From Peptococcaceae bacterium UBA6096 (GTDB lineage Bacteria > Bacillota > Peptococcia > DRI-13 > UBA5745), in NCBI GenBank assembly GCA_002435905.1, contig DIWW01000016.1, forward strand, positions 8,389 through 72,388: a stretch of DNA of 64,000 nucleotides, written 5' to 3'. The number at the start of each line of letters is the position of its first letter. The stretch's first letter is position 1. Below the pieces are notes generated by a model. The model had not been told where the DNA came from and did not search any database. It saw only the letters and a program-made list of their open reading frames with translations. A program made the translations under genes and the position numbers. Shown here one piece after another: positions 1 through 18,466 of this stretch.

Positions 1-1138
1 TGCGCGACATTATCATTTTTTCTATTGTTCTTGATCGCAGTTGCTCGGGGGAAATGTATAAAAGTGTGGCTGTACCATTCGCTATGCGTTCAAATGCATC
101 TGAACGTTCAATAGGACTTAGCAACCCATTTACGGTAACTGCATCAATAATGCCGAATTCATTCAGATTGTCTACCTGATCCTTCATCAGAGACTGGAGC
201 GGCGAAATAACAACAGTCAAACCGTGAACGGTCTTGCCCGACATCAACGCCGGCAACTGGAATGTAATTGACTTGCCCCCTCCAGTAGGAAAGACCGCAA
301 GTAGTGATTTACCATCGACAGCTGCTTGGGCTGCTTTTTCTTGAAGAGGCTCGCCGTTATATGTACGAAAACTATCATATCCGAATATTTTTTTCAGCTC
401 CTTGTGGATATTCAGCACTTCTGAACAGTAACTGCACCCGGCATCACAAGGAGTGTTTCGCAGAAATTTTATTACATTTTCAATCTTCGGATAATTTTTA
501 AGAAGCCACAGAGGTGTAATTGAATGATAATCATCGCTTCCGATCAGAGCAAGTGCATAGGCTAACTCCACAGGATAATGCTTAATCAATAGCGAGATAT
601 CAGCATTTGAGCATATTTTGCCTTTAAATTCGATCGCAATGAGTTTTTCTACATTGGATCCATATGGTACAAAATTTATATAATCAAAAAAGCTTTTGAA
701 TTCCTCAAATTGATATAATAGACAGCAGTATATTTGCTTCATTTGTGATGATAGCGTGTTGAAAGCATTGACTTCATCATAAAAGAGCTTTTCTGCTTTT
801 TGAGCGTCATTAAGCGGATTATTAAGTTCATCTGATTGGAGCTTATCATCCTTCAATAAAGCGTGGTAAGGCCTCTTTGGGAAGAGCAGTGGAGAAAGAT
901 ATAAAGTATCAATATATTTATCAGTAATGCCTCCACTTATGTGAGGCTTGATGAACACCATATCATGGTGAAAAATATTGTGCCCACAGAGGAATTCTGT
1001 TCCGGAGATAAAGGCACAAAAATCTCGCACAGATGCGCTGTGAAACGTGGATCGATCACTGCGCACTGCACCTAAATCATGTATTTTTTTATCATCGACT
1101 CCTACTTCGCTATCGATAAATACAATCGATTTTGCCAT
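1..1138 (-). CDS. RecQ-family SF2 DNA helicase with N-terminal DnaQ-like (DEDD) exonuclease domain; N-terminal part only, the rest lies beyond the left window edge
   Basis: Absent from the ORF track because it runs off the window. My translation from ATG 1138-1136 (GGAG RBS at 1145-1148) reads MAKSIVFIDSEVGVDD...GHNIFHHDM (Exo I/II-like motifs). It continues ...LLAVFPTGGGKSITFQLPAL...VVISPLQSLMKDQV (RecQ motifs I and Ia) and stays open to position 1. Confidence 0.75.
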   Translation of the reverse strand, partial: MAKSIVFIDSEVGVDDKKIHDLGAVRSDRSTFHSASVRDFCAFISGTEFLCGHNIFHHDMVFIKPHISGGITDKYIDTLYLSPLLFPKRPYHALLKDDKLQSDELNNPLNDAQKAEKLFYDEVNAFNTLSSQMKQIYCCLLYQFEEFKSFFDYINFVPYGSNVEKLIAIEFKGKICSNADISLLIKHYPVELAYALALIGSDDYHSITPLWLLKNYPKIENVIKFLRNTPCDAGCSYCSEVLNIHKELKKIFGYDSFRTYNGEPLQEKAAQAAVDGKSLLAVFPTGGGKSITFQLPALMSGKTVHGLTVVISPLQSLMKDQVDNLNEFGIIDAVTVNGLLSPIERSDAFERIANGTATLLYISPEQLRSRTIEKMIMSR

Positions 1139-1420
1139 TTTACTCTCCTTCGAAAATGCTTCTTGCCTCATATTTCAACAATATCTACCGATTTTGACTA
1201 ATCGCCATCGTTCAATACTCAATAAGTAATATCAACTGGCGTATATCCATTACCAGTAATATCTTGCCAAAGCAAGTTGCTATGTCATAATTATCCATTG
1301 GAGAATATTGCTAGCCAATTGATCGCGGCGACGTAATTTCTAATAACCCCGTCCTTCTGGATCATTTTATTTATGGGGCAGGCATTCCTTGCTCCCCCTG
1401 CAATTTATAAATTCATCAAA

Positions 1421-4327
1421 TCAATTCTCTAAATAATTGAGCATATTGTCATCTACCGGTACCTTGATATAAAATTTAATATTTACAATTGAAAGTTCAG
1501 CACCTTCATTATTCTTAATTTTTTCTTGCTTGAAATCATAGGGTTCCAAATCCCCCATATAATAGAAATCCGCCCCTTCCCCATCGCTCTTTTTGACAAA
1601 CAAAGGAATTCTTAACCCCTCTTTATAATTCTTTATTTGAACAACCTCGGGTGAGGATAATGTCACTCTATTACGAGTCATCCAGTTAAACTGGTATTTA
1701 TTGATAAAGTAATCCTCATATTTTGTGCTTTCGGTAATATCATCTTTCTTTTCATAAGTTACAAAAATCGGACATGTTTTATTTTTTATCCTATATCCAT
1801 ACATGGTTGATGCTTCATCTTTTTCCCAATTTAATATTTTACAAACATCCTTACGAGAATACTTCTGATAAATCAAAAATCCATCATAGTATTTATCTAA
1901 AGAAAATGCAGCATCAAATTTCTGGATGGCATATTTTAGAGTATCCAGAAGAAAAAGTTTGAAATACTCGTTGCTCGTTGCATCATATAGACTTGAAGAA
2001 ATTTCAAACAATTTTTCCTGAAACGATACACTACCTTTTACCTTGTATTTTTCTTGATCCTGCGCCTTGAGGAATTCTGCATTTAGGCATGCCACTGAAG
2101 ATGTTATTGTCTTATCACTCGGAAAATAACCAAATTGTTCGTTGATGGTTTGCATAAAAGCATCATACGAAACCTTGCCCTTATCAATGAGCATTTTCAG
2201 AAGCAAGATATCCTCGATTCTTTTGGCATTACAAATTTCTTTAGAATAAAATTCTAATAACTTCATTTCATTCTGGGATAGTCTTCCCATAATGGACGTT
2301 TCAATTTTAGATATAAAAGAATAATATGACCCCGCATATTCTACATAAGCGTATGGATCTCGACTACCGTGCTCAGTAAAATCACACATATCAGGAATTT
2401 TTCCAAGTTTAAACTTTAATAGTCGATAGTCTTCAACCATGTCTTTTTTATTTGAAAGATTGGTCGAATTGATTGCATCAAATATTCTCTGTTTTGTTAT
2501 GAAATCAAAATTGATTGTTGAAGAACCCGGAATAAAGCTGCTTCCACTATTAATGAGCTTTCTAATATTATCTTTATTATATGAACTATCTCCATAAAGC
2601 GCTATAGGCACTAAATAATTATTTGCGTAGTTGCCGATAAAATCAACGACTGTGAGATATTCTTTCTCTGAATTTTTTCTCAAACCTCTTCCTAGTTGCT
2701 GTACAAAAACGATTGCTGATTGAGTTGGTCGAAGCATAATTATCTGATTTACGGATGGTATATCGACGCCTTCATTAAAAATATCAACTGTAAATATATA
2801 GTCTAATGCATTTTTACCCTCATCTTGCTCAAGACGTTTAATACTATCTTCTCTTAGTGATTCGCTACTACTCCCATTCAGAGCTATGGTCCTGTACCCA
2901 TGTTTTAGAAACTCGTTTGCTAGATATTTTGCTTCTTCATTTCGACTACAAAAGACCAGTCCTTTTATTCTACCTTTGTCACAACCATAAAACTCCGCAA
3001 AATTCTTAATTTTGTCAATGCGCTCATTACTCGTCAAAATATTGAAATCCGCCTTATCATCGAGAAGAACCCCATCAACCTCTATGTCGCTAACCCCGTA
3101 ATAATGAAACGGCACTAACATGTTTTCTTCTAGTGCTTGGTTAAGCCTTATTTCATAAGCAATATTATAGTCAAATGTTTTATATATATCATATCCATCT
3201 GTGCGTTCTGGTGTAGCAGACATCCCAAGAAGAAACTTAGGTGTAAAATACTCGATTATCTTTTGATAGGTGTTGGCACCCGAACGATGTACTTCATCAA
3301 TTACGATGTAATCGAAATAATCCTTAGGAAAACTACTGAGTGTATCATCCTTTGACAGGGTTTGGATTGTTGAAAAAATGAAATCAGCATTTATTGATCT
3401 TTCATGACCGCTTAAAATACCCATTGTTTTTTTATATCCAAATATTGTCTTATAACTTGTCATTGCCGCTTTTGCAATATTCTCTCTGTGAATAATAAAC
3501 AATAGGCGCCTTGGATCAAATTTTAAAGCATCAAACGCCGATAAATATGTCTTGCCGGTTCCTGTAGCAGAAATAAGCAACGCTTTATTTTTACCTTCCA
3601 AACGTAATTTATCCAACGAGGCTAAGGCATTGATTTGCATTTTATTTGGACTAATTCGTTTAATATTTAAAATATTTGATTCAATCTCACCATTATATAA
3701 ACTGTTGGTTTTTGAATTACTATTTCGTATAAGCTTTTGATCATTATATATTTTTGCATATTCATCGATCCATGCTTCATCTACCATTGTAGCGTTTTCA
3801 TAGGTTTGATCAAATTCCTGTAGCGTATTGATAATTAAAGCACCTGCTTCTGATGTAGATACTTTAATGTTCCATTCCTTATTCATAGATAAAGCATTCT
3901 GTGTTAAATTACTGCTACCAACGATTAAAGAATAAATTTCGCCTTTTTTAAAAATATATCCCTTGGCATGAAAGTTACCCTCCGTAACAATCTTAAGCTT
4001 GATATTTTTTAATGATAACAATCGTTTCAAAGCTGCAGGCTCTGTAAAATTTTGGTACTGTGATGCAACAATTTTCCCCTTAATGCCTTTCCCCTCAAGC
4101 TCTTTTAATGTATTTATCAATACTGCAACACCGCTATTGGTCACAAATGCAACTGAAAAAAAGAACTCCTCACAATTCCGAAGTTCTTTGATCAAGTTGG
4201 TTAAGATTTTTAGGCCGCGCTTGCTGTCATTTATTAACAAACATGGTTGATACTCTTCCAAAGAAGCTGTCGTACTATTAATAAATCCAGTATATAAGCT
4301 ATCTGATAAATTCTTTTCAGTATTCAT
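1421..4327 (-). CDS. PLD-family (single HKD) nuclease domain + SF2 (ResIII/DEAH) helicase + C-terminal DUF3427-like region, 968 aa
   Basis: N-terminus has NFHAKGYIF...VGSSNLTQNAL (HxK...GSxN PLD motif). Helicase motifs: ISATGTGKTYLSA (Walker A), VIDEVHRSG (DEVH), LLGMSATPER (SAT), VQQLGRGLR (motif VI). The ~350-aa C-terminal region resembles the DUF3427 architecture. Very AT-rich. Confidence 0.85.
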   Translation of the reverse strand: MNTEKNLSDSLYTGFINSTTASLEEYQPCLLINDSKRGLKILTNLIKELRNCEEFFFSVAFVTNSGVAVLINTLKELEGKGIKGKIVASQYQNFTEPAALKRLLSLKNIKLKIVTEGNFHAKGYIFKKGEIYSLIVGSSNLTQNALSMNKEWNIKVSTSEAGALIINTLQEFDQTYENATMVDEAWIDEYAKIYNDQKLIRNSNSKTNSLYNGEIESNILNIKRISPNKMQINALASLDKLRLEGKNKALLISATGTGKTYLSAFDALKFDPRRLLFIIHRENIAKAAMTSYKTIFGYKKTMGILSGHERSINADFIFSTIQTLSKDDTLSSFPKDYFDYIVIDEVHRSGANTYQKIIEYFTPKFLLGMSATPERTDGYDIYKTFDYNIAYEIRLNQALEENMLVPFHYYGVSDIEVDGVLLDDKADFNILTSNERIDKIKNFAEFYGCDKGRIKGLVFCSRNEEAKYLANEFLKHGYRTIALNGSSSESLREDSIKRLEQDEGKNALDYIFTVDIFNEGVDIPSVNQIIMLRPTQSAIVFVQQLGRGLRKNSEKEYLTVVDFIGNYANNYLVPIALYGDSSYNKDNIRKLINSGSSFIPGSSTINFDFITKQRIFDAINSTNLSNKKDMVEDYRLLKFKLGKIPDMCDFTEHGSRDPYAYVEYAGSYYSFISKIETSIMGRLSQNEMKLLEFYSKEICNAKRIEDILLLKMLIDKGKVSYDAFMQTINEQFGYFPSDKTITSSVACLNAEFLKAQDQEKYKVKGSVSFQEKLFEISSSLYDATSNEYFKLFLLDTLKYAIQKFDAAFSLDKYYDGFLIYQKYSRKDVCKILNWEKDEASTMYGYRIKNKTCPIFVTYEKKDDITESTKYEDYFINKYQFNWMTRNRVTLSSPEVVQIKNYKEGLRIPLFVKKSDGEGADFYYMGDLEPYDFKQEKIKNNEGAELSIVNIKFYIKVPVDDNMLNYLEN

Positions 4328-4733
4328 TATTTATTTCACCATTTACTATTTGTTTAACAATCGGAATATCGGCCGCTGCCCAATCGAGTGTCAGCAGTTT
4401 ATCTTTTGTTAACCACACATGATCCGCATGTTCTTTTCTAACAAATTCTTTTTTATTGACGTTGCAAATATAGCTATGCATGATAATCCCAAAATCAGGA
4501 TACTGGTGTTGTACAGTCAAAAAGAAGTTTTTCTCTTCTATATTTACCTCGATATCCATTTCTTCTTTCAGTTCTCTTTTAAGTGCATCAACACAACTTT
4601 CCCCAGGTTCGACCTTTCCCCCTGGGAATTCATATTTATGGGATAAATATTCATGCTGATTCTCGCCTCTTTGCATACATAGGATTTCTTTGTCATAAAT
4701 TATTACTGCGGCAACAACCTCTATTGTTTTCAT
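4317..4733 (-). CDS. NUDIX hydrolase (MutT-like nucleoside triphosphate pyrophosphohydrolase)
   Basis: Nudix box GGKVEPGESCVDALKRELKEEMDI fits GX5EX7REUXEEXGU. The stop overlaps the downstream helicase start by 11 nt (4317-4327). Confidence 0.9.
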   Translation of the reverse strand: MKTIEVVAAVIIYDKEILCMQRGENQHEYLSHKYEFPGGKVEPGESCVDALKRELKEEMDIEVNIEEKNFFLTVQHQYPDFGIIMHSYICNVNKKEFVRKEHADHVWLTKDKLLTLDWAAADIPIVKQIVNGEINNEY

Positions 4734-5008
4734 AATCGGCCTCGCTTAATAAAATTTAATAAATATCACTATCCAGTCCTAACAAGTTAAGTATATAGAA
4801 ATTTCCCTATTCAATAACCTGCCCTGCATACTCGATTCATTCTCAATAAATATTTTTATATATTCCACGAAAATTATAATAACCCTTTAATTATCATTTA
4901 GACGTCATATAAAATATTAAAGCAATATTTAAGGATTGTATAATCACTCCCAGCAATCAATGCTATACTTATATTGACATAATTTCAATATAAGCGGGGC
5001 ACGCAGCA

Positions 5009-6043
5009 ATGAACGAGATCTTGATCTTCCAAAACATCTCCCCGTCCCTGGAATCCTATTGGCGTTCCATCATTCTGTTTGGCCGCAACGTGGCCTCCTA
5101 CAAATTCGCTTTGGCAAAATCCTTGCTGGAAATCCTCCCATCCGGCCAATCGGAAATAACCCTGGAGGCTTTGGCGGAGCCCTTTTCCCGCAACCTTTGC
5201 GAACATTTGAAGACTGCTCCCAAACAAGCCACCAGCAGCAGCAGCCAATTCCTGGATTCTTGCAGAGCCTTCAACGACGGTGGGATTTCACAAGAAGAAT
5301 TACTTGATGTCACGCGTAAAAAAGGGTTTAATAATGTCATTGATGCTTTTCATGTGGTCAACGACGATCCCATCCCGCTTCAGTTCTATACCAAGGACTA
5401 CTCAGGCCGCAGCAAAAAAATCATCCTCACCGATGATCTATTCAGACTTAGTGAATCACTGGCCTTTGATGATTTTTCCTCCGAAGCCGAATCCCGCTGG
5501 AATCTGGTGGAAACCGCATGGGAGCTTGGTGTATCAAGAAATCTGCTGAATGTCCAATACGACGGCCAAAACAAACTGCTGTTCATTTATGGTAAACTTC
5601 GCCGAAAGCAGGTCACCTCGGCCATCAGCGCTTTGAACGGCTACCAAAAGGGCAAATGCTTCTACTGCTTTGGCGACATCGCCATCCACGGCTCCCTCCA
5701 TCTCGCCTGTGACGTGGATCATTTTTATCCCTATACCCTGCAGCCCTTTCATCCTCAAATCAATTTCAATGGCGTCTGGAATCTGGTGCTCAGCTGTCCC
5801 AACTGCAACCGCGGCCCCAAGGGAAAATTCGCGCGAATCCCAGCCCTCAAATACCTGGAACGGCTCCATCGCCGTAATGAATTCCTGATCAGCAGCCACC
5901 ATCCCCTCCGGGAAACCATCATGAACCAAACCGGCCAAACCCCGCCAGACAGAATAAAATTCCTCAAAGATATGGACAGAATATCCATCGATCTCTTGAT
6001 CCACCGCTGGGAAACACCCCAGACTGGCCCAACCACATTCTAA
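5009..6043 (+). CDS. HNH endonuclease domain protein with ~210-aa uncharacterised N-terminal domain
   Basis: C-terminal KGKCFYCFGD...CDVDHFYPY...WNLVLSCPNCNRGPKGKF shows CxxC...DH...N...CxxCN, a beta-beta-alpha-Me HNH signature. No clear SD sequence upstream. Confidence 0.8.
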   Translation: MNEILIFQNISPSLESYWRSIILFGRNVASYKFALAKSLLEILPSGQSEITLEALAEPFSRNLCEHLKTAPKQATSSSSQFLDSCRAFNDGGISQEELLDVTRKKGFNNVIDAFHVVNDDPIPLQFYTKDYSGRSKKIILTDDLFRLSESLAFDDFSSEAESRWNLVETAWELGVSRNLLNVQYDGQNKLLFIYGKLRRKQVTSAISALNGYQKGKCFYCFGDIAIHGSLHLACDVDHFYPYTLQPFHPQINFNGVWNLVLSCPNCNRGPKGKFARIPALKYLERLHRRNEFLISSHHPLRETIMNQTGQTPPDRIKFLKDMDRISIDLLIHRWETPQTGPTTF

Positions 6044-6062
6044 GAACACCAAGGAGCATCAT

Positions 6063-6650
6063 ATGGACAAAACCCTCCAATACTACAACGAAAACGCCAA
6101 AGCCTTTGTGGAAGGCACCTGGGGCGCCGATGTTTCCGGTCTCTACGCCTTCTTGCAGAAATACGTCAAACCCGGCGCCGCCATCCTGGACCTGGGCTGC
6201 GGCTCCGGCCGGGACAGCCTTTATTTCCTTTCCAAGGGCTATCAAGTATGCGCCGTGGACGGTTCAGAGGAACTATGCAAAATGGCGGCGGAGCGGATTG
6301 GCCGGCCGGTAGAATGCAAGCTGTTCCAGGACATCGACGACGTAGACCAGTTTGACGGCATTTGGGCCTGTTCCTCCCTGCTTCACGTCCCATATGACCA
6401 GCTGCCGTCTATCCTGGACAAACTGCACACCGCCCTCAAGGCCAAGGGCTATCTGTACCTATCTGCCAAGTACGGCACCTTCTCCGGCGAACGGAACGGA
6501 CGCTACTTTACGGATCTGGACGAGGCCCGGCTTGAGGATCTCCTCAAAAAAGCTAAGGGCTTCAGCATCGTCGAAACCCGCATCACCACCGATGTCCGGC
6601 CCGGACGCGAAGACGAAAAGTGGCTCAACGCCATCCTTCAAAAGCTATAG
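6063..6650 (+). CDS. Class I SAM-dependent methyltransferase (small-molecule/protein type)
   Basis: Motif I ILDLGCGSGRDS, post-I AVDGSEEL, motif II-like FDGIWACSSLLHVP. RBS AAGGAG lies 6 nt upstream. Starts 19 nt after the HNH gene. No DPPY/NPPY or C5-MTase motifs. Confidence 0.85.
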   Translation: MDKTLQYYNENAKAFVEGTWGADVSGLYAFLQKYVKPGAAILDLGCGSGRDSLYFLSKGYQVCAVDGSEELCKMAAERIGRPVECKLFQDIDDVDQFDGIWACSSLLHVPYDQLPSILDKLHTALKAKGYLYLSAKYGTFSGERNGRYFTDLDEARLEDLLKKAKGFSIVETRITTDVRPGREDEKWLNAILQKL

Positions 6651-6686
6651 CGCAAAAATCATCGAACCGTAAGGAGGCCGCCCATC

Positions 6687-6941
6687 ATGATCGCATGGAA
6701 AACCGAGTACAAAGGCACCAAAATCGAGGTTCGCAACAGCCACCAAAAAATCGAGCTGGTCGTAGATGACAATATCGTAGATGCCTGCCAGGACTTGAAA
6801 TTCAAAGGCAAATCCATGGAGCTAAAGGCTGATCACGATGGTCACCTGATCCGCTGCGTCTTTGAAAAAAAGGTTCTGTGCATGATGGCCAAAATCTATT
6901 ACGACGACCGGATGCTGGAGGGCAAAGAAATCGTCATCTGA
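6687..6941 (+). CDS. Hypothetical 84-aa protein
   Basis: Strong RBS AAGGAGG 9 nt upstream. Starts 36 nt after the methyltransferase gene and is followed by a terminator hairpin. No recognisable motif. Confidence 0.55.
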   Translation: MIAWKTEYKGTKIEVRNSHQKIELVVDDNIVDACQDLKFKGKSMELKADHDGHLIRCVFEKKVLCMMAKIYYDDRMLEGKEIVI

Positions 6942-6942
6942 A

Positions 6943-6985
6943 AACAACGCAAGCCATGATCTATGTGGCTTGCGTTGTTAATTTA
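6943..6985. terminator. Hairpin terminator between the convergent 6687-6941 (+) gene and the DUF2779/micro-ORF (-) unit
   Basis: AACAACGCAAGCCA-loop-TGGCTTGCGTTGTT, a perfect 14-bp stem, followed by AATTT. Confidence 0.6.
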
Positions 6986-7026
6986 TATGCTGTTGATGCG
7001 ACAGCCCCGCTCATAATTCATCCATG

Positions 7027-7107
7027 TTATTTCCAGCTGAAAGACTTGATCAGCTTATACAGCACAATGATCGGCAGCAACAGAATATAGAATATGACTC
7101 TGATCAT
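7027..7107 (-). CDS. Possible 26-aa hydrophobic micro-protein (MIRVIFYILLLPIIVLYKLIKSFSWK)
   Basis: My own translation; too short for the ORF track. RBS GGGAGG lies 6 nt upstream of the ATG. Starts 38 nt downstream of the DUF2779 stop on the same strand. Predicted single TM helix. Confidence 0.3.
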   Translation of the reverse strand: MIRVIFYILLLPIIVLYKLIKSFSWK

Positions 7108-7145
7108 CCACCGCCTCCCTGCCTTCATCTAGTCAGTACTCTGCC

Positions 7146-9122
7146 TCAGCAACCAACCATAGCCTTCCATCCCTCATAGATCATCACCATGGCAAAGGTG
7201 TCCAATTCACAATACTTCAGCAAGGCCTTCTCGATTTCCCCCCGCTCATAATCCGACATCTCTTCAAACTGCATCCTGGCGTAGGCGGTCATGGCAGCGC
7301 CGCCGTCCCGCAATTCATTGGCCGCGCTGAGCAATTCATAATCCTTATCCGAGACATCCTCAAACATTTTAGGCAGCAGCTTATACGGATCCAGCACCTT
7401 GCCATTCTCCATGACGATCCATTGCCAGTCCTTATAGTTCAAACTGGCAATGCCGCCAGCCGCGCCATAGATGGGCTTTGAATATTTTTGCTGCAGATAG
7501 GGAGAGCTGTTGAGGATCGCCGGCAGCACATACTTGATCGAATTTGAGCCTTTGGTGGCGGGATCATAGTAGTATCGCTTTTCCAACTCACAGAGGTCGA
7601 TCATCGAACGCGGCCCCGACCAGGCGTCCACACAGCCGTGGGTCGATGTCGTAATGCTGCGGATAAAGCAGCTCAGTGCCTCCCGATCCGGGATGTCGCT
7701 GGGATCCTCCTGCAGCTGCCTGTAGATCAGGTTCAAATAGCTGTTTTCGTGGGCGGCATAGCGGAAGATGCTGCCTTCGTCCTGCTCCAGTGCCTGCTTC
7801 AGGCTGCGCAAAAAATCATAATTAGGAAACACCCCCGGCACTGCATTCAAATACTGCCCCCGGTGCTCGATCCGACCGTCTGCATGGACCATGTGGTGCG
7901 AATATTGAAAGGCGATCCCTTCATAAGGGTGTCTTCCCTTGTTGAAAGGAATGGCCATCATGGAGGTTTCAAAGTCAATAAAATGCAGCGGATAGATCCA
8001 AGTTTCCATTTCACGGCGCAGATTCTCTGCATCGATCCAATACGTCATGTCGTTGAACTTCGCTTTGCTCACCTGAAGCCATTGACGCTGGCTGGCCGAC
8101 AAGCCCGGTTTTGCGTCGCTTTTGGGATGGATATCCTCCTCCTGAAGGTTCTCCAGCTTGATGCACCGGTCACTCAAATATTGATCTTTCTTCCGGAAAT
8201 TCCAGATCTCCAGAATGTTGGGCTCTTGAAAATCCTCCTCCTCCCAACATAGGCATTCCTTCCAACATTCCTGGAAGCCGCTCTTGAGGCCCTTCGCTGC
8301 ATCCTCCGCAGTGACCTTAAATTCGCAGCCGGCGCATACCTTGGTCAAAACGGGTTGGATTTTCATATCCTTCTCATAGCAATCGGCCAAATAGGCCGCA
8401 TAGTCCCCAAAGCCGGCCGGCTGCCCATCCATTTCATAATTTTCACTGTAAATCATATCGCAGCAGTCATCTGCGTTGATACGGCATAGGATCGGCACGG
8501 AAAGGTCCTCGGCGCTCAGCCTTGGCGATACCGCAATGCTTTTTCTTCCCCTGGCATCCGTTATGATCCGAAACTTCTGGTTCAGACCGTTGGTAGGACA
8601 AAGGGCTTTTTTATCTGCAAGCATCAAGTAGGCCGCCACCGAGCATTCAGGCATTGCCTGCTGGAGGACGTATTTCTGAAAAGCTACATCATAGAGATAA
8701 GGCATCCATTCCGAGGTAATGGAGCCATCTTTATTGAGAAAGGCTGCATCGGAAGGGAATTCCACAGACTTAGCCTTGACCTCCACCAGCTCCAGCCGGG
8801 AACCCTTTTTGATCAGGATATCAACCCGCACAAACAGGTTCTCATAACAAACAGCCGCCTCATAGATGATCGCTTGATCTTGCTTCAGCAGTTCGCTGGT
8901 TTGCCGCAGCGCTTCCCTCTGCTCCAGCATCTTGACGTCATGACCGCCTGGGAAATAATGCTTGGCTAGCTCACCCACCTGAAAGCCCCCTTCGGCCAGG
9001 GCTTCCAGAAAGGAATCCTCCAGCTTCTGGTTGGCGTACGCCGGTTTACCGGTGTAGTAAAGCTTGGTGGGGCACTCCATGGCCAGTTTGAATCGGGATT
9101 TGGTCAAATATCTGGGCTGCAT
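7146..9122 (-). CDS. DUF2779-family protein with N-terminal PD-(D/E)XK (Cas4/RecB-like) nuclease fold and Cys cluster
   Basis: MQPRYLTKSRFKLAMECPTKLYY resembles the typical DUF2779-family N-terminus. RVDILIK...LELVEVKAKS gives D...ExK. Cys cluster CAGCEF...ECWKECLCW. I prefer the start at M25 (9122), which has GAAGG 7 nt upstream; the ORF track start is 9194. Confidence 0.7.
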   Translation of the reverse strand: MQPRYLTKSRFKLAMECPTKLYYTGKPAYANQKLEDSFLEALAEGGFQVGELAKHYFPGGHDVKMLEQREALRQTSELLKQDQAIIYEAAVCYENLFVRVDILIKKGSRLELVEVKAKSVEFPSDAAFLNKDGSITSEWMPYLYDVAFQKYVLQQAMPECSVAAYLMLADKKALCPTNGLNQKFRIITDARGRKSIAVSPRLSAEDLSVPILCRINADDCCDMIYSENYEMDGQPAGFGDYAAYLADCYEKDMKIQPVLTKVCAGCEFKVTAEDAAKGLKSGFQECWKECLCWEEEDFQEPNILEIWNFRKKDQYLSDRCIKLENLQEEDIHPKSDAKPGLSASQRQWLQVSKAKFNDMTYWIDAENLRREMETWIYPLHFIDFETSMMAIPFNKGRHPYEGIAFQYSHHMVHADGRIEHRGQYLNAVPGVFPNYDFLRSLKQALEQDEGSIFRYAAHENSYLNLIYRQLQEDPSDIPDREALSCFIRSITTSTHGCVDAWSGPRSMIDLCELEKRYYYDPATKGSNSIKYVLPAILNSSPYLQQKYSKPIYGAAGGIASLNYKDWQWIVMENGKVLDPYKLLPKMFEDVSDKDYELLSAANELRDGGAAMTAYARMQFEEMSDYERGEIEKALLKYCELDTFAMVMIYEGWKAMVGC

Positions 9123-9234
9123 ACACACGCCTTCTTTCTGCATCGGCTTGGATACACACAAAATGCTTCCAATCTCAAAGATTCCATGGATCATCGGATC
9201 CAGGTTCCCTAATTTCTATAATACACCCATTTTG

Positions 9235-9252
9235 TGTGCGATGGATCGCACA
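9235..9252. promoter_or_regulatory. Perfect 8+8 inverted repeat TGTGCGAT-GG-ATCGCACA in the divergent intergenic region (candidate operator)
   Basis: Read directly from the sequence. Lies between the divergent DUF2779 and GHKL ATPase genes. A TGGTAAAAT extended -10-like element sits at 9341-9349 on the + strand. Confidence 0.35.
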
Positions 9253-9399
9253 GATTAAATCGGCTTCTTGCCTGTTCTTAAATTCAAAGGCAAATCCAGG
9301 GATACAAAGGTCTGATCGATGCAAATTCTCTGATTATTTATGGTAAAATAGAACCAACACACCCACTGACTGAATCCCAAGGACGAGGAGGATGGAACC

Positions 9400-11301
9400 A
9401 TGACCATTTTCAAATTGCCGGTGGATCAACGGGTCATCGACATCGACTCCCGACGCTTTGCCTCGGTGGAAAAAGCCATTGTGGAGCTGATCACCAACAG
9501 CGACGACAGCTACAGCCGCATGGAGCAGGCAGAGCTGCCGGTCAGCGGCACCATAGCCATTCGCTATGAACGCCACCAAAGCGGCGCCGTGCTCATCGTT
9601 GCCGACCAGGCTGAAGGCATGTCCTTTGAGCAGCTTCATTCCGTCCTCTCCTATGGCGGGGCCTACAGCCAAATGGCCCGGGGGCTTGCCGGCGGCCGCG
9701 GCTACTTTGGCCGGGGCCTGAAGCAGGCCATCTACGGCCTGGGCCATGGCTGGATCGAAACGATCTACAAGGGCCGCTTCGGACGGGTCGATCTTTTTAC
9801 GGACGAAAACGGCGCCTATTTGTTTGATGACGGGGATCAGGACCGGGCAGCCCAAGAAAGAGACTATGCCCGTCTGGGCATTCCGGCCGAAGGCAACGGC
9901 ACCCAGGTGACCATCATCATTGAAAATCCCCAGACCAACATCCCTTATTTTAATTCTCTTGTTTTTTCCATTTCCAACAACATCTATCTGCGGGATATCC
10001 TGGGGCGGCGCCAGGTCAGCATGATTAATTTGAATCAGGCCAAAAGCAAGCAGACGGCCTTGCCCTTGGTTTATGCGGAACCGGAGGCTGATCTGCTGGT
10101 CGGCCCCGAGGCCCCGGGCCTGTTCCGATATCAAGAGGTCCAATATTCCTTTGACCTGACCTTAAAAAAGGCCCTGGATGCGGATTTGGTCCTGAAAGGC
10201 GACGAACGGACCAACGGTCTGCTGGTGATCTCCGGCACCGCCGTCTTTGACTGCCAATTTTTCCGTTTTGAAAACCAACTAGGCACCGAATATTTATTTG
10301 GTACGGTCCATTGTCCGGGATTGGCCAAAATGCTGGTTAATGGCAAGCCCATCATCAGCGACGAACGAGAAGGCTTGAATATGAAGGAGCCCTTTGCCGC
10401 AGCTTTTGGTGAAGCGGTGAGCGACATGATCGCCGGATACATCAAGAATGAACAAATCAGGCTGAGCCATGTGGATTATGCCAAGACCTCCATGCGCACC
10501 CGGAATATGATCCGGCAGGTTTTGCAGCGGATGAATCAGATCGCCATCGAAGATCTGGGGATCATCCTGCCCCCGGGCCCCGGTTCCGGCCGCTATGGCC
10601 AATTTGATACGGGACGGCCTTCCGTCCTACGTTTCACGACCCCCTTCTATTACCGAAAGGTTGACCATCCCTTTCATGTCAAGATGATCGCGGACCGCAA
10701 TCAAATTCAGGACCAGGAGCTTTTGTCAATAACCTATCAATTGCCGGACAGCATCCGGATCGAGCCCAACTTCACAGGCGTGATGGTGGCGGATCTGCCA
10801 GAAAATGGCCATTTGGAATGGACGGTCATCGGCAATATGATCGGCGCAAAAGGGATCATCGAGGTGGCCACGGGAGATTTTCGGGCCTCAGCGGAAATCG
10901 TCATTGCAGAGAACGCCTCAGGGAAAGGGTACGGCAATGTCTCCAGCAAGCCCAGCATCCCATGGAATATGGACAACTCCATCGATATCTTCGCCGGCTA
11001 TGAACTGCGGAATCTGGACAATGATCTGGACCGGGCGGTTTATCTTCCAGAGGAGCGTCTGATCATCATCAACACAGAGGCCCCCACCGTTCGGCTCTAT
11101 GTCAACGGGCAAGGCCATTTCAAGGATGGCGCCCGGCTCTTGCTGGCGGAATTGTTGTTGGATGTCATCACCGATGAGCTTTCCCGCCGCTACGTGGACC
11201 GGACCACCCAGAAGGGGCAGGCCGAAGCCTACAAGCAGGCGAAGCATGATTTGATCCGGCGCTACGGCTTGGAGATCCATTCGATTCTACTGGGGGAATA
11301 G
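9400..11301 (+). CDS. GHKL-superfamily (MORC/Hsp90/MutL-like, HATPase_c_3-type) ATPase, 633 aa, large uncharacterised C-terminal region
   Basis: Bergerat-fold motifs: N-box VELITNSDDSY, G1-like VADQAEGMS, G2-like GGRGYFGRGLKQAIYG. RBS GAGGAGG. Confidence 0.75.
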   Translation: MTIFKLPVDQRVIDIDSRRFASVEKAIVELITNSDDSYSRMEQAELPVSGTIAIRYERHQSGAVLIVADQAEGMSFEQLHSVLSYGGAYSQMARGLAGGRGYFGRGLKQAIYGLGHGWIETIYKGRFGRVDLFTDENGAYLFDDGDQDRAAQERDYARLGIPAEGNGTQVTIIIENPQTNIPYFNSLVFSISNNIYLRDILGRRQVSMINLNQAKSKQTALPLVYAEPEADLLVGPEAPGLFRYQEVQYSFDLTLKKALDADLVLKGDERTNGLLVISGTAVFDCQFFRFENQLGTEYLFGTVHCPGLAKMLVNGKPIISDEREGLNMKEPFAAAFGEAVSDMIAGYIKNEQIRLSHVDYAKTSMRTRNMIRQVLQRMNQIAIEDLGIILPPGPGSGRYGQFDTGRPSVLRFTTPFYYRKVDHPFHVKMIADRNQIQDQELLSITYQLPDSIRIEPNFTGVMVADLPENGHLEWTVIGNMIGAKGIIEVATGDFRASAEIVIAENASGKGYGNVSSKPSIPWNMDNSIDIFAGYELRNLDNDLDRAVYLPEERLIIINTEAPTVRLYVNGQGHFKDGARLLLAELLLDVITDELSRRYVDRTTQKGQAEAYKQAKHDLIRRYGLEIHSILLGE

Positions 11302-11404
11302 TTCCATAAGGCTACGACAAGCGACTGCTTGCTTATGGTGAATAGATGAACTCTCCTCTATGCTTGCCCTAGACCCTTTTCTGAAACATAAGGCATAATT
11401 CGCA

Positions 11405-11441
11405 TAAAAAAACTATCGGATCTTTTTCCGATAGGTTTTTT
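11405..11441. terminator. Bidirectional intrinsic terminator (GHKL gene / TRAP operon)
   Basis: AAAAAAA-CTATCGGA-tctttt-TCCGATAG-GTTTTTT: an 8-bp stem flanked by an A-run and a T-run. Confidence 0.7.
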
Positions 11442-11503
11442 ATAGCCGCTAGCGGCTTCTATATCATTGAGGGAGGGTTGAGCAACAGGATTGTTCGATC
11501 AGA

Positions 11504-12778
11504 TCAGCCAAGCAGCGTGGGGAGCCAGAGTGTTAAGGACGGTACGAAGCTAACCAGCGCCAGGATGAACAGTGCAATCACCAGAAATGGCAAGCATGCT
11601 TTGAAGGATCCACCCATGGTCGTATTGCCCAGCTTGGTCCCCACCAGCAAGGAAATGCCAACGGGTGGCGTAATGCAACCAATATAAATATTGATGCAAG
11701 TGATAATACCGAACTGTATCAAATTGATTTCATAGGCATTGACCAGACTCAGCATCAGCGGCACCATCATCACGATGATACAGTTGCCTTCCATCAGGCA
11801 GCCCAGCACCAGATAAATGACGTTGATCAACAGGATCACCGCCACCTTAGAGCTAGCCACCGCCTGTATCGCCTCAGCAAACAAACTTGGGAGCTGAGAA
11901 GAAATCACAACGTAAGCAGACGACTTGGACAAGCCCACCAGGATCATAATCGCCGCTACCGAGATCGTTGTTTCATACAGGGTATTCAAAAGGTTCTTGA
12001 AGCTGATTGTTTTGTAAATGAACATGCCGACAAGTCCGGCATAAACCGCAGAAATCGCAGCAGCCTCCGTCACCGTGCAAATCCCGCCGAAGATGAGTCC
12101 CAGCACCAGGATCGGCATCAGCAGCGCCCAGACGTTGTCCTTCATGGCCGCCATCTTTTCTTTCATGGTGGTGGCAGGCTGCATCGGCAATTGGTTTTTG
12201 TAACCGTAGTAAAGTGTATAAATCAAGAAAAGGATCGTGCAAAGAATCGCTGGGGTCGCCGTCGCCATAAACAGTTTCTGAATCGATGTCTCTGTCAGGC
12301 TGGCGTACACCACCAGGGAAATGGAAGGCGGTATCATCGGTCCTAGCAACGATGAGCAGCTTGCGCAAGCCACAGCATAGTTGTCATCGTAACCCTCTTT
12401 TTTCATGGCCGGTACGGTCATGCCGCCAACCGCCGCCACCGTGGCAACGGCAGAACCGGATATGGCGCCGAACAGGGCGGAGGCAAGGACAGTGACGGAA
12501 CCAAGGCTGCCTCGGACCCTTCCCAGGGCAATATTGGATGCGGAAATCAGTTTCTGCGTGATCCCCTGGGCCATCAGATTACCAGCGAGAATGAACAGCG
12601 GAATCGCCAGAAGAGACGCTGAATTCAATCCAAGAAAGGCTTTTTGCGCAATTGCCTGCAGCGGAAAACCCACATACATCATCGCGGTCATCGTAGCAAC
12701 CCCAATGGCTAAATAAATCGGCAAACCGAAAAATGCCAATACAACCAATAATAAAAAGACGAGTAATCCTGCATTCAC
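11504..12778 (-). CDS. dctM: TRAP transporter large permease subunit
   Basis: 424-aa polytopic membrane protein with DctM-like sequence. The GTG start overlaps the dctQ stop (GTGA). Confidence 0.85.
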   Translation of the reverse strand: MNAGLLVFLLLVVLAFFGLPIYLAIGVATMTAMMYVGFPLQAIAQKAFLGLNSASLLAIPLFILAGNLMAQGITQKLISASNIALGRVRGSLGSVTVLASALFGAISGSAVATVAAVGGMTVPAMKKEGYDDNYAVACASCSSLLGPMIPPSISLVVYASLTETSIQKLFMATATPAILCTILFLIYTLYYGYKNQLPMQPATTMKEKMAAMKDNVWALLMPILVLGLIFGGICTVTEAAAISAVYAGLVGMFIYKTISFKNLLNTLYETTISVAAIMILVGLSKSSAYVVISSQLPSLFAEAIQAVASSKVAVILLINVIYLVLGCLMEGNCIIVMMVPLMLSLVNAYEINLIQFGIITCINIYIGCITPPVGISLLVGTKLGNTTMGGSFKACLPFLVIALFILALVSFVPSLTLWLPTLLG

Positions 12779-13308
12779 GCGTTGTTCGCCCCCTTCTGTA
12801 GGGCGCCGCCCTTAAATTTCCTGAACTCCCCGAAGTTCTTGGCAATGTTTTCAATGGAAAATAAGATCAGCAGGATCGAGCCGATGGGGAAGGCATAATA
12901 AACGTGCCGTATTAAAATAGGCAAGGTGGTGGAGGCTCCGGTTGCATGCTGGATCAGGCTGATGCTATAAGCGCAAAAAACAATCATAAATGCGATGGCT
13001 ACGATGGAACTGACCGCAGTGATCAGGCAGCGGGTGCTATATTTCATAAAGTTTAGGAGGAAGTCCACCTGCAAATGGCTTTCCTTCCGCACTGCGATGG
13101 AAATACCCAATAAGACGCTGTATATGCATAGATATAAAGACAGTTCCTCACACCAGGGCTGTGCATTTGAAAAGATATATCTCATGATGCACTGGTAGCA
13201 CATGATCAGGGTGATCCCGGACAATAAGCCGATTTCAATGACCCTCAGGATCTTTTCAACGACGTCCAGAAAACCGGAGTATTTTTTCAGCACTAATTTC
13301 ATCTCCAT
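12775..13308 (-). CDS. dctQ: TRAP transporter small permease subunit
   Basis: 177 aa with 4 predicted TM segments, positioned between DctP and DctM. Confidence 0.8.
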   Translation of the reverse strand: MEMKLVLKKYSGFLDVVEKILRVIEIGLLSGITLIMCYQCIMRYIFSNAQPWCEELSLYLCIYSVLLGISIAVRKESHLQVDFLLNFMKYSTRCLITAVSSIVAIAFMIVFCAYSISLIQHATGASTTLPILIRHVYYAFPIGSILLILFSIENIAKNFGEFRKFKGGALQKGANNA

Positions 13309-13376
13309 CCATCTGAAATGCTTCTAAGGATAGGGCTATGACGGCGGAACCGCCGCCATAGCCCTATGAATTAATG

Positions 13377-14429
13377 TTATTTTGAGGGATCGGCAGCCTT
13401 GATTGCGTTGGCATATTCCACAAGGCCGGGGTACTTCGCTTCCAGGAAACCGTCAAGGGCTTGCTGCCACAGCGTCACATCGGTATCAACAAACTCTAAA
13501 CCGGCATCAACGCAAATCTTACGTTTCTCTTCGGTAGCCGTCAGGATGGAGTCCGTGCAGGATTTTCCGGCCTCAACCGCGGCATCCCGGATGATCGTCT
13601 GGTATTCTGCAGGAAGAGAGGCGAAGTATTTCTTGTCCATGATGAAGGAATCCGTCGTATACACGTGCTCGGTTTCAATGATGTAATCCGTGGCCTCATG
13701 CCAGGACAAGCTGACAATGTTGGTCAGGCCGTTTTCTGCACCGTCGACGGTACCCTGCTGGATCGCAGTGAACACTTCACTGCCGCCCAGAGGGGTCGGG
13801 GAAGCCCCCAGCCATGCCCAAGTGTCCAGATACATGGGGATGGTGGGCGTACGCAGCTTAAGACCCTTGACATCCGCGGGACTCTCTACCTTCTTGTTGG
13901 TACACATCACGCGGATACCCTGCAGGGCGGCGCCCATGATCTCCATGTTGCTTTCATCGCCCATATCCTTCAGGATTTTTTGTCCGACTTCGCCTTCCCA
14001 AACCGCTCTCCAGTGATCGACGCTGGAATACATGTAGGGTGCAGCGTCAATGTTCGCCAGAGGAGAAATCGATGCCAGGTTGGCAGTCGCTTCATACACG
14101 ATGTTGCAAATGCCCATGCTCAGGCCTTCCAGGCAGTCCGCGGTGTTGCCCAAAGAGGAGCTGGGATACAATTCCACGGTGATGTTGCCGTTGGTCTTCT
14201 CATTGACGGTCTTGGCAAACAGTTCTGCAGACTTGTATACAGGGTCGGACTCGCCGATGCTCAGATGCATCTTCATGGTATAGGCTTTATCGCTCGCCGC
14301 CGCGGTACCGGAAGCTGCCGCAGCAGTTGTCGTAGCAGTAGCCGCCGCGCTGCCGGAAGAACCGCAGCCCGCCAGTAAAGACAGGCACATGATGGCGCAC
14401 AATACGATGGAAACAACCTTTTTACTCAT
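13377..14429 (-). CDS. dctP: TRAP transporter substrate-binding lipoprotein
   Basis: Signal peptide with lipobox LLAGCGSS. DctP-family sequence. Start placed at ATG 14429 (GGAGG 8 nt upstream) rather than TTG 14444. Confidence 0.85.
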   Translation of the reverse strand: MSKKVVSIVLCAIMCLSLLAGCGSSGSAAATATTTAAAASGTAAASDKAYTMKMHLSIGESDPVYKSAELFAKTVNEKTNGNITVELYPSSSLGNTADCLEGLSMGICNIVYEATANLASISPLANIDAAPYMYSSVDHWRAVWEGEVGQKILKDMGDESNMEIMGAALQGIRVMCTNKKVESPADVKGLKLRTPTIPMYLDTWAWLGASPTPLGGSEVFTAIQQGTVDGAENGLTNIVSLSWHEATDYIIETEHVYTTDSFIMDKKYFASLPAEYQTIIRDAAVEAGKSCTDSILTATEEKRKICVDAGLEFVDTDVTLWQQALDGFLEAKYPGLVEYANAIKAADPSK

Positions 14430-14567
14430 TTTTATTTCCTCCAAATTTTATTGATTTTTGTAGGGAACTTTGCATGTTTACTATTGTACTATTTCTGCGT
14501 TCTCTTTTCGATAGCCAAATGCTCGAGATTCAAAGGGGATATAATGCGATACTTAATGCGCTTGTGC

Positions 14568-15593
14568 TTAGGGCTTCAGAATCGTTTTAACACATTCCCC
14601 CTTCAGCATCATGTCCAGTCCCTTTTCATAATCTTCCAAGGGCAGAGTATGGGTTACGATCGGCTCCAAATCCAGGCCGGCAGCAAACATACCGTTCATG
14701 TCTTCCCAGGTATTGAAAATCCTTCTGCCCGCAATACCTTTTAATGTAATGCCTCGATAAATAAATTCAGAAAAATTCACATTGGGCCTCTCGCTGGGCA
14801 GTCCCACAAAAACGATTTTGCCTTCCGGCCGGACAAAGCGGAACACACTTTCGATGCCCTTGGCATTGCCGGAGTATTCCAGCACCACGTCCGCTCCATA
14901 CGTTGCGATGCTCTTGATGACTTGCTCCGCATTTTCTTTCGCTGGGTTGATCACCACATCCGCTCCCATATTCTTGGCCAACTCAGCCCGGGTGGAATTC
15001 GGTTCCACTGCAATCACCCGCGCGGCCCCGCATAGCTTGGCAACCGCAACGGCCATGGCGCCGATGGGTCCGCAGCCATTCACAACCACCTTCCGGCCGG
15101 ACACCGGATATTGCATCACGCCGTGGACCGCAGCGCCCAAGGGCTCCATCAGGCATAAATACTCAGGCTTCACGCTGGGATCGCAAACCACGACGTTTTG
15201 ATACGGCAAGGAGATATATTCCGCAAAGCAGCCGTCCCGGTTGACGCCGATCAACCCGCTGTGGGGGCACACATGCCGCTCGCCGATCCGGCAGATTTCG
15301 CAGCTGTTGCAGGGAATATGGGTTTCAGCGGACACCACGTCGCCAACCTTGACGCCTTTGACCTTGGCGCCGACCTTGACGACTTCGCCGGAAAACTCGT
15401 GTCCTATCACAATCGGAGGGGTTACATAGCGTTGCGCCCAGTCATTCCAGCCCTGAATGTGCACATCCGTGCCGCAAACCGCCGTGGCCAGGACTTTGAT
15501 GAGAACATCGTCCTCGCCATATTCCGGGATTTCTCTTTGCACAAACTGCAAGTTCCCAGCGCCTGCAGCCGTCTTCATTACACATTTCATCAT
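14568..15593 (-). CDS. Zn-dependent medium-chain alcohol/polyol dehydrogenase (threonine/sorbitol dehydrogenase-like)
   Basis: AVCGTDVH, GHEFSGEV, the structural-Zn Cys cluster CNSCEICRIGERHVC, and GCGPIG Rossmann motif. Confidence 0.85.
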   Translation of the reverse strand: MMKCVMKTAAGAGNLQFVQREIPEYGEDDVLIKVLATAVCGTDVHIQGWNDWAQRYVTPPIVIGHEFSGEVVKVGAKVKGVKVGDVVSAETHIPCNSCEICRIGERHVCPHSGLIGVNRDGCFAEYISLPYQNVVVCDPSVKPEYLCLMEPLGAAVHGVMQYPVSGRKVVVNGCGPIGAMAVAVAKLCGAARVIAVEPNSTRAELAKNMGADVVINPAKENAEQVIKSIATYGADVVLEYSGNAKGIESVFRFVRPEGKIVFVGLPSERPNVNFSEFIYRGITLKGIAGRRIFNTWEDMNGMFAAGLDLEPIVTHTLPLEDYEKGLDMMLKGECVKTILKP

Positions 15594-15615
15594 GGCCTAC
15601 TCTTCTTTCTGTCGT

Positions 15616-16473
15616 TTATTCGTTGGCTGCAATCACCAATTCAAACAGGATCAGGACAGGATTCTCTCCTCTGCGCAGCTTGCCGAAATGGATGGTCCCC
15701 GCGGCATCGATCAGTGCAGTGTAAAAATCAACCTGAATCTCTCCGGCAGCATCGGTCCATACCTTGCCGTCCAAGGCGATCAGTTCCGTCGGGATTTCCT
15801 CGATGATGTTGCCATCCTGGAAATCACCGCCCACCGTGCTGCCAATCGCGGTCCAAAGCGTCCCATCCGAAACACCGTGTTTCTTGCAGATCGCGGCAAT
15901 GGTCTCCAGCAGATCCTCATTGGCTTTGACGGTGGCAATGATGCACTTCCTGCCGCCCTGACCTGCTTCATTCTTCTGCAGGGGATCGTAAATTGTGAAG
16001 TTCGTTTCCGGATCGTAGACCGAATTGATCTCGACGGACTTGGTATAAAAAGCAATGGCCACCGCATCCTCCGCCACCATGCTTTGAGCCGGGAGAATAT
16101 GCCCTCCCTTTTGTATTTCCCCATCCTTCCATAGTCCGTGAAAATGCATGGAGGGGATATTTTCGCGAATCCCATACGTGGCGTTCGCATAGTCAATATG
16201 GATCCCTTCCGGGACTGTATAGGTTTCGCTATAATAAGCCGCATGCTGGTCATCCGAAGAATAGGTCGGCATGACATAATTGACCGGAGCAAGCTTCAGT
16301 CCTTCGAACCGAATGCCGGCGCCGCGGATCCCCATGGGCTCCAGCACCTGAGAAACCGCATCGATCAATTTGCTGCCTTTCCTCAATGGAACTTCAACAA
16401 TGCTCAAAGGGCCTTCCTTGCTGATCACCTTTTCTGCTGACACAGGCCCCGGATGTTTGATTTTCCTTGCCAT
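15616..16473 (-). CDS. Hypothetical protein, possibly tandem PPC/DUF296-like domains
   Basis: Two halves with similar patterns (PLRKGSKLIDAV...GIRGAG and VKANEDLLETIAAICKKHGVSDG). The family assignment is from memory only. Confidence 0.4.
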   Translation of the reverse strand: MARKIKHPGPVSAEKVISKEGPLSIVEVPLRKGSKLIDAVSQVLEPMGIRGAGIRFEGLKLAPVNYVMPTYSSDDQHAAYYSETYTVPEGIHIDYANATYGIRENIPSMHFHGLWKDGEIQKGGHILPAQSMVAEDAVAIAFYTKSVEINSVYDPETNFTIYDPLQKNEAGQGGRKCIIATVKANEDLLETIAAICKKHGVSDGTLWTAIGSTVGGDFQDGNIIEEIPTELIALDGKVWTDAAGEIQVDFYTALIDAAGTIHFGKLRRGENPVLILFELVIAANE

Positions 16474-16513
16474 TCTAAATTCTCCTCATCAACGTGTTGA
16501 CTCCGATGGGCGG

Positions 16514-18324: not shown

Positions 18325-18421
18325 ACGATCCCCCTTCGGTGTTGTTTCTTTTAAACATCCAACATAGGATGTTCACATGTTGAATGTTACCATACGTCAA
18401 TTTATCTGTCAATCATGAGCA

Positions 18422-18463
18422 TAAAAAAAACACCCCTGATTTTTTCCGTCGAATCAGGGGTGT
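18422..18463 (-). terminator. Intrinsic terminator after the GntR gene
   Basis: ACACCCCTGATT-loop-AATCAGGGGTGT, a 12-bp stem, followed on the minus strand by TTTTTTTT. Confidence 0.75.
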
Positions 18464-18466
18464 CGT

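Follow-up and report, generated by a model that had tools for sequence, protein, structure and literature searches.

SauUSI of Staphylococcus aureus USA300 (SAUSA300_2431; PDB 7CLG) is a type IV restriction endonuclease in which a PLD nuclease, a superfamily 2 (SF2) helicase and a DUF3427 domain are arranged in one chain. It acts on DNA containing 5-methylcytosine (5mC) or 5-hydroxymethylcytosine (5hmC), with a preference for S5mCNGS sites. Directly upstream, its operon also contains a NUDIX hydrolase gene (SAUSA300_2432), and at least 60 SauUSI-like genes are linked to a gene of this kind (Xu et al., 2011, PMC3141236). SauUSI is active alone in S. aureus (PMC3141236, PMC3312211), and deletion of the NUDIX gene there brings no relief of restriction (Monk et al., 2012, PMC3312211). 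An operon of the same type is found near the beginning of a 64-kb stretch of the genome of Peptococcaceae bacterium UBA6096, a Peptococcaceae-like organism of enrichment cultures that degrade hydrocarbons. This stretch, called the window here, corresponds to positions 8389-72388 of contig DIWW01000016.1 (C8), and coordinates below are those of the window unless prefixed with C8. The region around the operon is probably a mosaic, strain-variable island of nucleic-acid-acting cassettes of one or two genes each, acquired independently of each other, and not one multi-gene system. The initial annotation had named six genes in the first 11.3 kb, encoding an Exo-RecQ, a PLD-helicase-DUF3427 protein, a NUDIX hydrolase, an HNH protein, a DUF2779 protein and a GHKL ATPase. 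All six are present where they had been placed; a 195-aa (amino acid) methyltransferase gene (6063-6650) and an 84-aa open reading frame (ORF; 6687-6941) have to be added to them.

The PLD-helicase-DUF3427 gene (1421-4327, minus strand; 33% guanine plus cytosine, GC) encodes a protein of 968 aa that matches the PADLOC model mREase_IV with 3.9e-226 over residues 6-968. The protein is collinear with SauUSI over the full length, residues 7-968 being aligned to 8-953 of 7CLG (E 4.7e-221), and all three domains are recognized. The PLD nuclease domain matches PLDc_2 (1.9e-10) and RE_NgoFVII in Pfam, and its HAKGYIF...GSSNLT motifs are conserved against 7CLG. The SF2 helicase domain (ResIII, 2.5e-37; Helicase_C, 2e-13) carries GTGKT and DEVH motifs aligned to those of SauUSI, and DUF3427, the C-terminal target-recognition domain, is matched with 1.3e-80 at profile positions 1-279 of 280. 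As in the S. aureus operon, the NUDIX gene (4317-4733, minus strand; 138 aa) lies immediately upstream, and its stop codon overlaps the start of the SauUSI homologue by 11 nucleotides (nt). Its product matches Pfam NUDIX (4e-16) and the PADLOC candidate PDC-S07 (9e-46); it is NudG/MutT-like, but the scores are under the cut-offs. Judged by homology, these two genes are the known SauUSI-type type IV restriction operon, which overturns the earlier view that none of the genes forms a recognizable canonical unit. The host belongs to a different class of Firmicutes from that of SauUSI.

The SauUSI homologue would translocate along incoming DNA by using ATP and cut it with the PLD nuclease where 5mC or 5hmC is present; this specificity and the S5mCNGS preference are presumed for the window enzyme from SauUSI. 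No match to the C5 cytosine methyltransferase family PF00145 was obtained in the host genome, while the family is found in nine of 14 control genomes, and its absence fits a 5mC-dependent enzyme. The defence role of the SauUSI homologue is, by this homology, well grounded. A sister species, G001, has a SauUSI homologue of a second lineage (48% identity), and there too a NUDIX gene lies beside it. In that genome (G001:C57, or L010, 597-8931) the NUDIX gene is convergent, and genes for an unassigned protein of 655 aa, a protein with a phosphoribosyltransferase domain and an ABC/AAA_21 ATPase flank the homologue.

How the six genes stand to one another can be seen in a close relative, L119/L120, recovered via its 93%-identical helicase, by blastn of L119 against C8. 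Nucleotide identity is 92% in the helicase gene, 88% in the segment with the HNH, methyltransferase and 84-aa genes, 85% in the GHKL gene and 88% in the AraC-Fic segment. Three clean indels interrupt the alignment. The low-GC SauUSI+NUDIX cassette of 3.75 kb (1188-4939, delimited by junction alignment) is replaced in the relative by an unrelated AT-rich spacer of about 165 nt, the 2.4-kb DUF2779 cassette (6956-9328) by 75 nt, and an 8.3-kb locus (11308-19607) by 120 nt. Furthermore, the cargo downstream of the L119 helicase is a different one: genes for BnzB-like (6e-43), TerB and PDC-M09A-like (1.5e-25) proteins take the place of the PASTA, AAA_14 and Ppnp genes of C8; another PDC-S01 ATPase is likewise encoded in the relative. 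The suggestion of a variable hotspot with alternative cargo is thus borne out by the three indels and by these other defence-type genes beside the L119 helicase. Each of the families is patchy among 41 relatives; a full-length SauUSI-type gene, for example, is found in two of them. Two further observations concern L119. The replacing genes (L119:14991-18664) lie on one strand and encode proteins of 623 aa (BnzB-like; Bunzi), 248 aa (with a TerB domain) and 340 aa (PDC-M09A-like), a trio that may be a three-gene system. The helicase segment (C8:4624-9575, window -3764 to 1187), at 92% nucleotide identity, stands above the adjacent host-GC genes (85-88%).

The third indel changes how the right-hand side of the island is read. 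The content had been thought to switch to metabolism from 11.5 kb onward; a TRAP transporter operon does begin at 11504, but the variable region resumes with a Fic gene at 20753-21640. The 8.3-kb segment between is a catabolic cassette for a TRAP transporter, a Zn-dehydrogenase, a PCC-domain protein, a split transketolase and a GntR regulator. Because it is an indel against L119, where the GHKL gene directly abuts the AraC/Fic genes, this "ordinary metabolism" is accessory cargo inserted within the variable region. The HTH-Fic protein (plus strand) matches the PADLOC candidate PDC-S04 (2e-108) and, more weakly, SoFic; its gene sits between two AraC/GyrI-like genes (19602-23345) and is conserved beside the GHKL gene in L119. 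The limits of 1-11301 once assigned to the island accordingly reflect where the window begins and where the metabolic cassette is inserted, not the island itself.

In G001, the low-GC block described below is missing, and the GHKL, DUF2779 and HNH-methyltransferase genes are found on three different contigs. The HNH, methyltransferase and 84-aa genes are together on a contig of 1.8 kb, and the GHKL gene has a hydrolase-like ORF on one side and a sigma-54 activator gene on the other. This activator was considered as the left flank of the island and rejected, being only a 58%-identical paralogue of the one there. Flank synteny in G001 is uninformative, as its contigs end at the relevant genes (C65, 1.8 kb; C351, 1.4 kb). 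The unity implied for the six genes is contradicted by at least five cassettes gained or lost independently and by G001, in which the GHKL and DUF2779 genes are on other contigs among housekeeping genes. From left to right, the island would be made up of a low-GC block beginning 7.5 kb to the left of the window, with Ppnp, an AAA_14/DUF4143 ATPase, small ORFs, a PASTA protein and a 1614-aa helicase; the SauUSI-family enzyme with its NUDIX partner; the HNH protein with its methyltransferase and the genus-specific 84-aa ORF, a pair that recurs across phyla; a DUF2779 fusion of a solo-Cas4 and an exonuclease; a stand-alone GHKL ATPase; and the inserted sugar-catabolism cassette followed by the Fic (PDC-S04) gene.

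A composite nature of the region had already been proposed from two composition classes, and these are evident. At about 4990, GC content steps from 33-40% in the genes to the left to 47-57% in the genes to the right. Genome-wide 2-kb windows have a mean of 50% with a standard deviation of 4.5%, and a GC content of 36% or less is reached in only 1% of them. The step lies in an AT-rich divergent intergenic region (4734-5008), whose right ~70 nt, on the side of the HNH promoter, are kept in L119/L120. The low-GC block extends 7.5 kb to the left of the window, to about C8:830. Its left part, outside the window, encodes Ppnp, a 437-aa AAA_14/DUF4143 ATPase corresponding to the PADLOC candidate PDC-S01 (3e-101), small ORFs and a 263-aa PASTA-domain protein, and outward of it are genes for a sigma-54 activator and an FAD oxidoreductase. 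Matches to mREase_IV, PDC-S07, PDC-S01 and PDC-S04 all fall inside about 30 kb, so that the defence-type content suspected earlier is supported by several genes matching PADLOC defence or candidate models. A search of the E. coli genome for the region gave no match, and exact-protein look-ups for the AAA_14 and Ppnp proteins gave none either, probably because gene callers differ in the choice of start codon.

The first gene of the window is more than had been noticed. The RecQ-type DEAD helicase in the initial "Exo-RecQ" assignment is real, but the window (2-1171, minus strand; 40% GC) holds only the first 390 of 1614 aa, and a UvrD motor has to be added. The full gene (C8:4715-9559) runs 3.7 kb to the left beyond the window, and Pfam recognizes DEAD, Helicase_C, UvrD-helicase and UvrD_C in the complete ORF, in which an exonuclease-like head is fused to a RecQ-like SF2 core and this to a UvrD-like superfamily 1 (SF1) motor. 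The label of exonuclease comes from DxE, HNxxxxD and Hx4D motifs read by eye and a faint match to DinG-N (E 0.008); the head had no profile match, and a PDB sequence search with the N-terminus gave none. In the order of its exonuclease-like head and RecQ-type SF2 core, the protein resembles WRN, the eukaryotic fusion of a DEDD exonuclease and RecQ, as well as PsyrT/RqlH and DpdF; unlike them, it has an extra, complete UvrD-type SF1 motor. PADLOC gave only partial matches to DpdF, PsyrT and GajB, those to PsyrT and DpdF at residues ~254-642 of the 1614, and no PsyrA or Dpd (DpdA-K) partner gene is found in C8:1-20000. Membership of PsyrTA or Dpd was ruled out on these grounds. The family counts more than 8000 homologues, about 1600 aa long, with 70-80% identity in metagenome-assembled genomes (MAGs) of Clostridia; their source name is only "RecQ family helicase". 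The gene stands alone, with neighbours that vary among the homologues. Among the 41 relatives, full-length copies are present in five, and a sixth copy is split in two. Decayed fragments with in-frame stops occur in two family mates (G006:C62:51509-53482, 72% identity; G007:C38:122270-123172, 63%), and these stop-bearing copies show that the gene is dispensable and decaying in relatives.

To the right of the composition step lies a gene pair. HNH-344 (5009-6043, plus strand; 344 aa) is predicted to consist of a winged-helix-like N-terminal domain and a zinc-finger HNH nuclease with the motif CxxC...DH...N...CxxCN. Pfam gives no match to it, and PADLOC gives only weak matches to PtuB and Cas9 HNH models (1e-4 to 1e-6). 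In an AlphaFold2 model, the N-terminal domain (residues ~30-160) has a predicted local distance difference test (pLDDT) score of ~85-90 and the HNH half is of low confidence. The best hits of a Foldseek search are weak winged-helix domains (E >=0.1), with no significant PDB match; ScoMcrA (5ZMM), of the phosphorothioate-dependent SBD-HNH type IV enzymes, stands at rank 22 with E 1.4, and a sulphur-binding fold of the N-terminal domain was not confirmed. A PDB sequence search gave no match. Directly downstream is the gene for the 195-aa class I S-adenosylmethionine (SAM) methyltransferase (plus strand), TehB-like and of small-molecule type by its Pfam matches (Methyltransf_25/11/12, TehB). It is followed by the 84-aa ORF (plus strand), seen only in the own genus, and by a terminator with a 16-bp stem (6943-6979). 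The Pfam matches of the 195-aa protein include no DNA-methyltransferase family, and PF00145 is missing genome-wide as mentioned above. Classical restriction-modification (R-M) of types I-III was ruled out for the pair, its sole methyltransferase matching small-molecule families with no cognate DNA methyltransferase.

Homologues of HNH-344 number more than 5700 and are spread over more than ten phyla with 47-67% identity outside the genus; of the 41 relatives, two have the gene, both from the own genus. Among 72 genome loci with enough room around the gene, the methyltransferase gene follows HNH-344 directly in 42 and is a neighbour in six others (48/72). In loci where it is missing, the adjacent gene may encode another small enzyme, such as a HIT hydrolase (4), a PRA-PH/MazG-like pyrophosphatase (3) or another methyltransferase (3). 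Genes for SRA-HNH, AspBHI-N-HNH, RloB, McrBC, McrC, type I R-M, DISARM, Lamassu and AbiE proteins are found nearby. In a descriptive tally of the 140 nearest-neighbour ORFs, strong PADLOC matches are to DrmD, DrmMII, LmuA, NsnB, AbiEii and type II methyltransferases. A homologue is carried by 28 plasmids; among phages none was found. There are more elaborate arrangements. In L030:1-9852 and L031:1-9852, from two MAGs, HNH-344 and the methyltransferase are genes 8 and 9 of a tight same-strand array in the order McrBC-like, 376 aa, 143 aa, NUDIX, 375 aa, 490 aa, 374 aa, HNH, methyltransferase, PRTase-CE; this array may be a larger composite system.

By these associations, a defence role of the HNH-methyltransferase pair is reasonably supported; the pair would act as a restriction-like nuclease with a helper that modifies nucleotides or small molecules. 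It is conceivable, though on balance doubtful, that HNH-344 and its adjacent small enzyme are an uncatalogued, multi-phylum restriction-type module that parallels SauUSI+NUDIX, in which a nuclease for foreign or modified DNA is joined by a "house-cleaning" enzyme for modified nucleotides or bases. Such a partner would block re-incorporation of modified nucleotides or bases by the host, or would deplete the pool of the invader.

GHKL-633 (9400-11301, plus strand; 633 aa) is an Hsp90/MORC/SMCHD1-like ATPase recognized by HATPase_c_3 (Pfam, 2.3e-6), in which the GHKL ATPase is accompanied by a beta-rich domain and, at the C-terminus, a helical hairpin. Its predicted model (pLDDT 71.7) was aligned by Foldseek to Hsp90, SMCHD1 and MORC3 with E values of 6e-9 to 2e-8 over ~390-500 columns. 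The aligned columns reach beyond the ATP-binding domain; after the Bergerat fold comes a transducer-like middle domain. A PDB sequence search with the protein gave no match. About 510 homologues of near-constant length are known from Firmicutes, Negativicutes and Actinobacteria with 59-96% identity. They share no conserved neighbour, and none was found on plasmids or phages. GHKL-633 is a single-gene, horizontally spread family, present in two of the 41 relatives. With prokaryotic MORC/paraMORC and Hsp90-type ATPases it shares the Bergerat ATP-binding fold (HATPase_c_3); unlike these, it has neither the Hsp90/MutL Pfam signature nor a linked restriction, nuclease or helicase partner.

The DUF2779 protein (7146-9194, minus strand; 682 aa from the first ATG) matches PF11074 at residues 404-552 (3e-20). 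According to the literature, the family combines a Cas4-like nuclease with a 3'-5' exonuclease-like half of RNase-H fold (PMC3985635, PMC13621843). In the window protein, the N-terminal half appears Cas4-like PD-(D/E)XK from a D...ExK motif and a Cys cluster, by motif reading and literature and with no profile match. A PDB sequence search gave no match. In PF11074 and the Cas4-like N-terminal features it is like MMSYN1_0389 and other solo-Cas4-exonuclease fusions of the family; unlike that quasi-essential Mycoplasma homologue, it is a dispensable 2.4-kb cassette in the window. A perfect 18-bp palindrome (9235-9252) falls within the same indel; it travels with DUF2779 and is therefore no part of a GHKL promoter common with the relative.

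We infer an anti-phage or anti-plasmid function for the other cassettes, and for SauUSI by homology, and several other explanations of the region have to be weighed against the mosaic reading. One of them is that the composition step marks a chimeric MAG contig, arisen by mis-assembly or mis-binning, so that the island is not real. The source genome (2.54 Mb) is in 26 contigs with an estimated contamination of 4.8%, and the low-GC block begins only 830 bp from the contig end. The identical gene arrangement, however, recurs in 16-17 contigs of independent JGI, ENA and Logan metagenome assemblies of hydrocarbon-degrading cultures, one of these contigs being 296 kb long, with the junctions on both sides, and L119 also has a low-GC helicase beside a high-GC HNH gene. 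Because of this recurrence the junctions are no assembly artefact, and the probability left to a chimera is negligible. In some older JGI metagenome contigs (L012, L013, L018) the SauUSI and helicase genes are broken into two or three ORFs; these may be frameshift errors, since other assemblies have intact genes. Another possibility is a new multi-component defence system in which the whole set of six, or the low-GC trio of NUDIX, SauUSI-like and Exo-RecQ genes, works together. In its favour, the genes lie side by side, NUDIX and SauUSI overlap, and these two share strand and low GC with the helicase. Still, L119 keeps the helicase, HNH-methyltransferase and GHKL genes without SauUSI+NUDIX and DUF2779, homologues of the helicase, GHKL and HNH genes are never neighboured by others of the six, and SauUSI acts alone in S. 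aureus (PMC3141236, PMC3312211). The cassette indels in L119 together with the dispersal in G001 rule out a single six- or three-gene system, and it can be given only a very slight chance. Scarcely more probable is a remnant of an integrated mobile element, such as an integrative and conjugative element, a prophage or a transposon, whose mobility genes were lost. The sharp edges of the low-GC block would suit such an origin, as would the fact that its genes are most similar to homologues from Clostridia and further Firmicutes. In C8:1-20000, though, there is no integrase, transposase, tRNA gene, phage structural gene, conjugation gene or terminal repeat, and the block is no single unit, as L119 has the helicase and neither SauUSI+NUDIX nor the PASTA/AAA_14 side.

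A more substantial competitor, unlikely as it is overall, says that DNA repair or maintenance is the role of the genes with host GC, possibly also of the fusion helicase, and that they came to lie beside a restriction cassette by chance, so that only SauUSI+NUDIX is defence. Several observations point this way and weigh against the mosaic reading. PADLOC matches neither DUF2779 nor GHKL-633. The DUF2779 homologue of G001 (64% identity) lies amid polyamine, aminotransferase and ABC transporter genes, and the homologue in JCVI-syn3.0, the minimal Mycoplasma, is quasi-essential according to the literature; by this housekeeping context and this quasi-essential homologue, DUF2779 leans to DNA maintenance over defence. 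The helicase family is highly conserved across many Clostridia, often among housekeeping genes such as ribosomal or metabolic ones, so that a repair role is a serious rival for it, and GHKL adjoins tsaD in Raineyella. More general points also weigh against the mosaic reading. The informative relatives are two, G001 (very fragmented) and L119/L120, and the term "hotspot" rests on few genomes; the neighbour tally of HNH-344 has no control set; and no integrase, transposase, tRNA gene or direct or inverted repeat that would account for cassette exchange was found along the island margins or where the SauUSI cassette joins its flanks. Against a general repair role, all these families are patchy within the order, and the ~60% identity of homologues in distant phyla argues for horizontal transfer. 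The helicase has decayed to pseudogenes in relatives, HNH-344 is repeatedly beside restriction and Abi genes and is plasmid-borne, and DUF2779 is itself a clean indel. For the defence role of the helicase, GHKL-633 and DUF2779, DNA maintenance stays a serious rival. A mosaic of independently acquired cassettes nevertheless remains the likely description of the region as a whole.

Taken as such a mosaic, the region is a defence island of an ordinary kind, with a SauUSI+NUDIX operon of a type already published; the value of the region is in the leads. Three large, horizontally spread families lie in a demonstrably variable locus, namely HNH-344 with a swappable partner, GHKL-633 and the ~1600-aa exonuclease-RecQ-UvrD fusion, and each of them can be cloned as a unit of one or two genes. 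Two of the nucleases in the island are paired with helpers that act on nucleotides or small molecules, which revives the question, raised in 2011, of what the NUDIX partner does with SauUSI. If the proposed module is real, the island holds two independent cases of one design principle, SauUSI+NUDIX and HNH-344 with a methyltransferase, HIT or MazG partner; and GHKL-633 and the Exo-RecQ-UvrD fusion may then be further single-gene systems.

Compared with described defence islands, the locus differs in three respects: no integrase or hotspot-flanking pair of core genes was found here, an 8.3-kb sugar-catabolism cassette lies inside it, and GHKL-633 and DUF2779 are in no defence catalogue. In the other respects it is like defence islands with swappable cassettes, in which known and candidate genes are clustered, cassettes are present or absent as units, alternative cargo occupies the same place and the families are patchily distributed.

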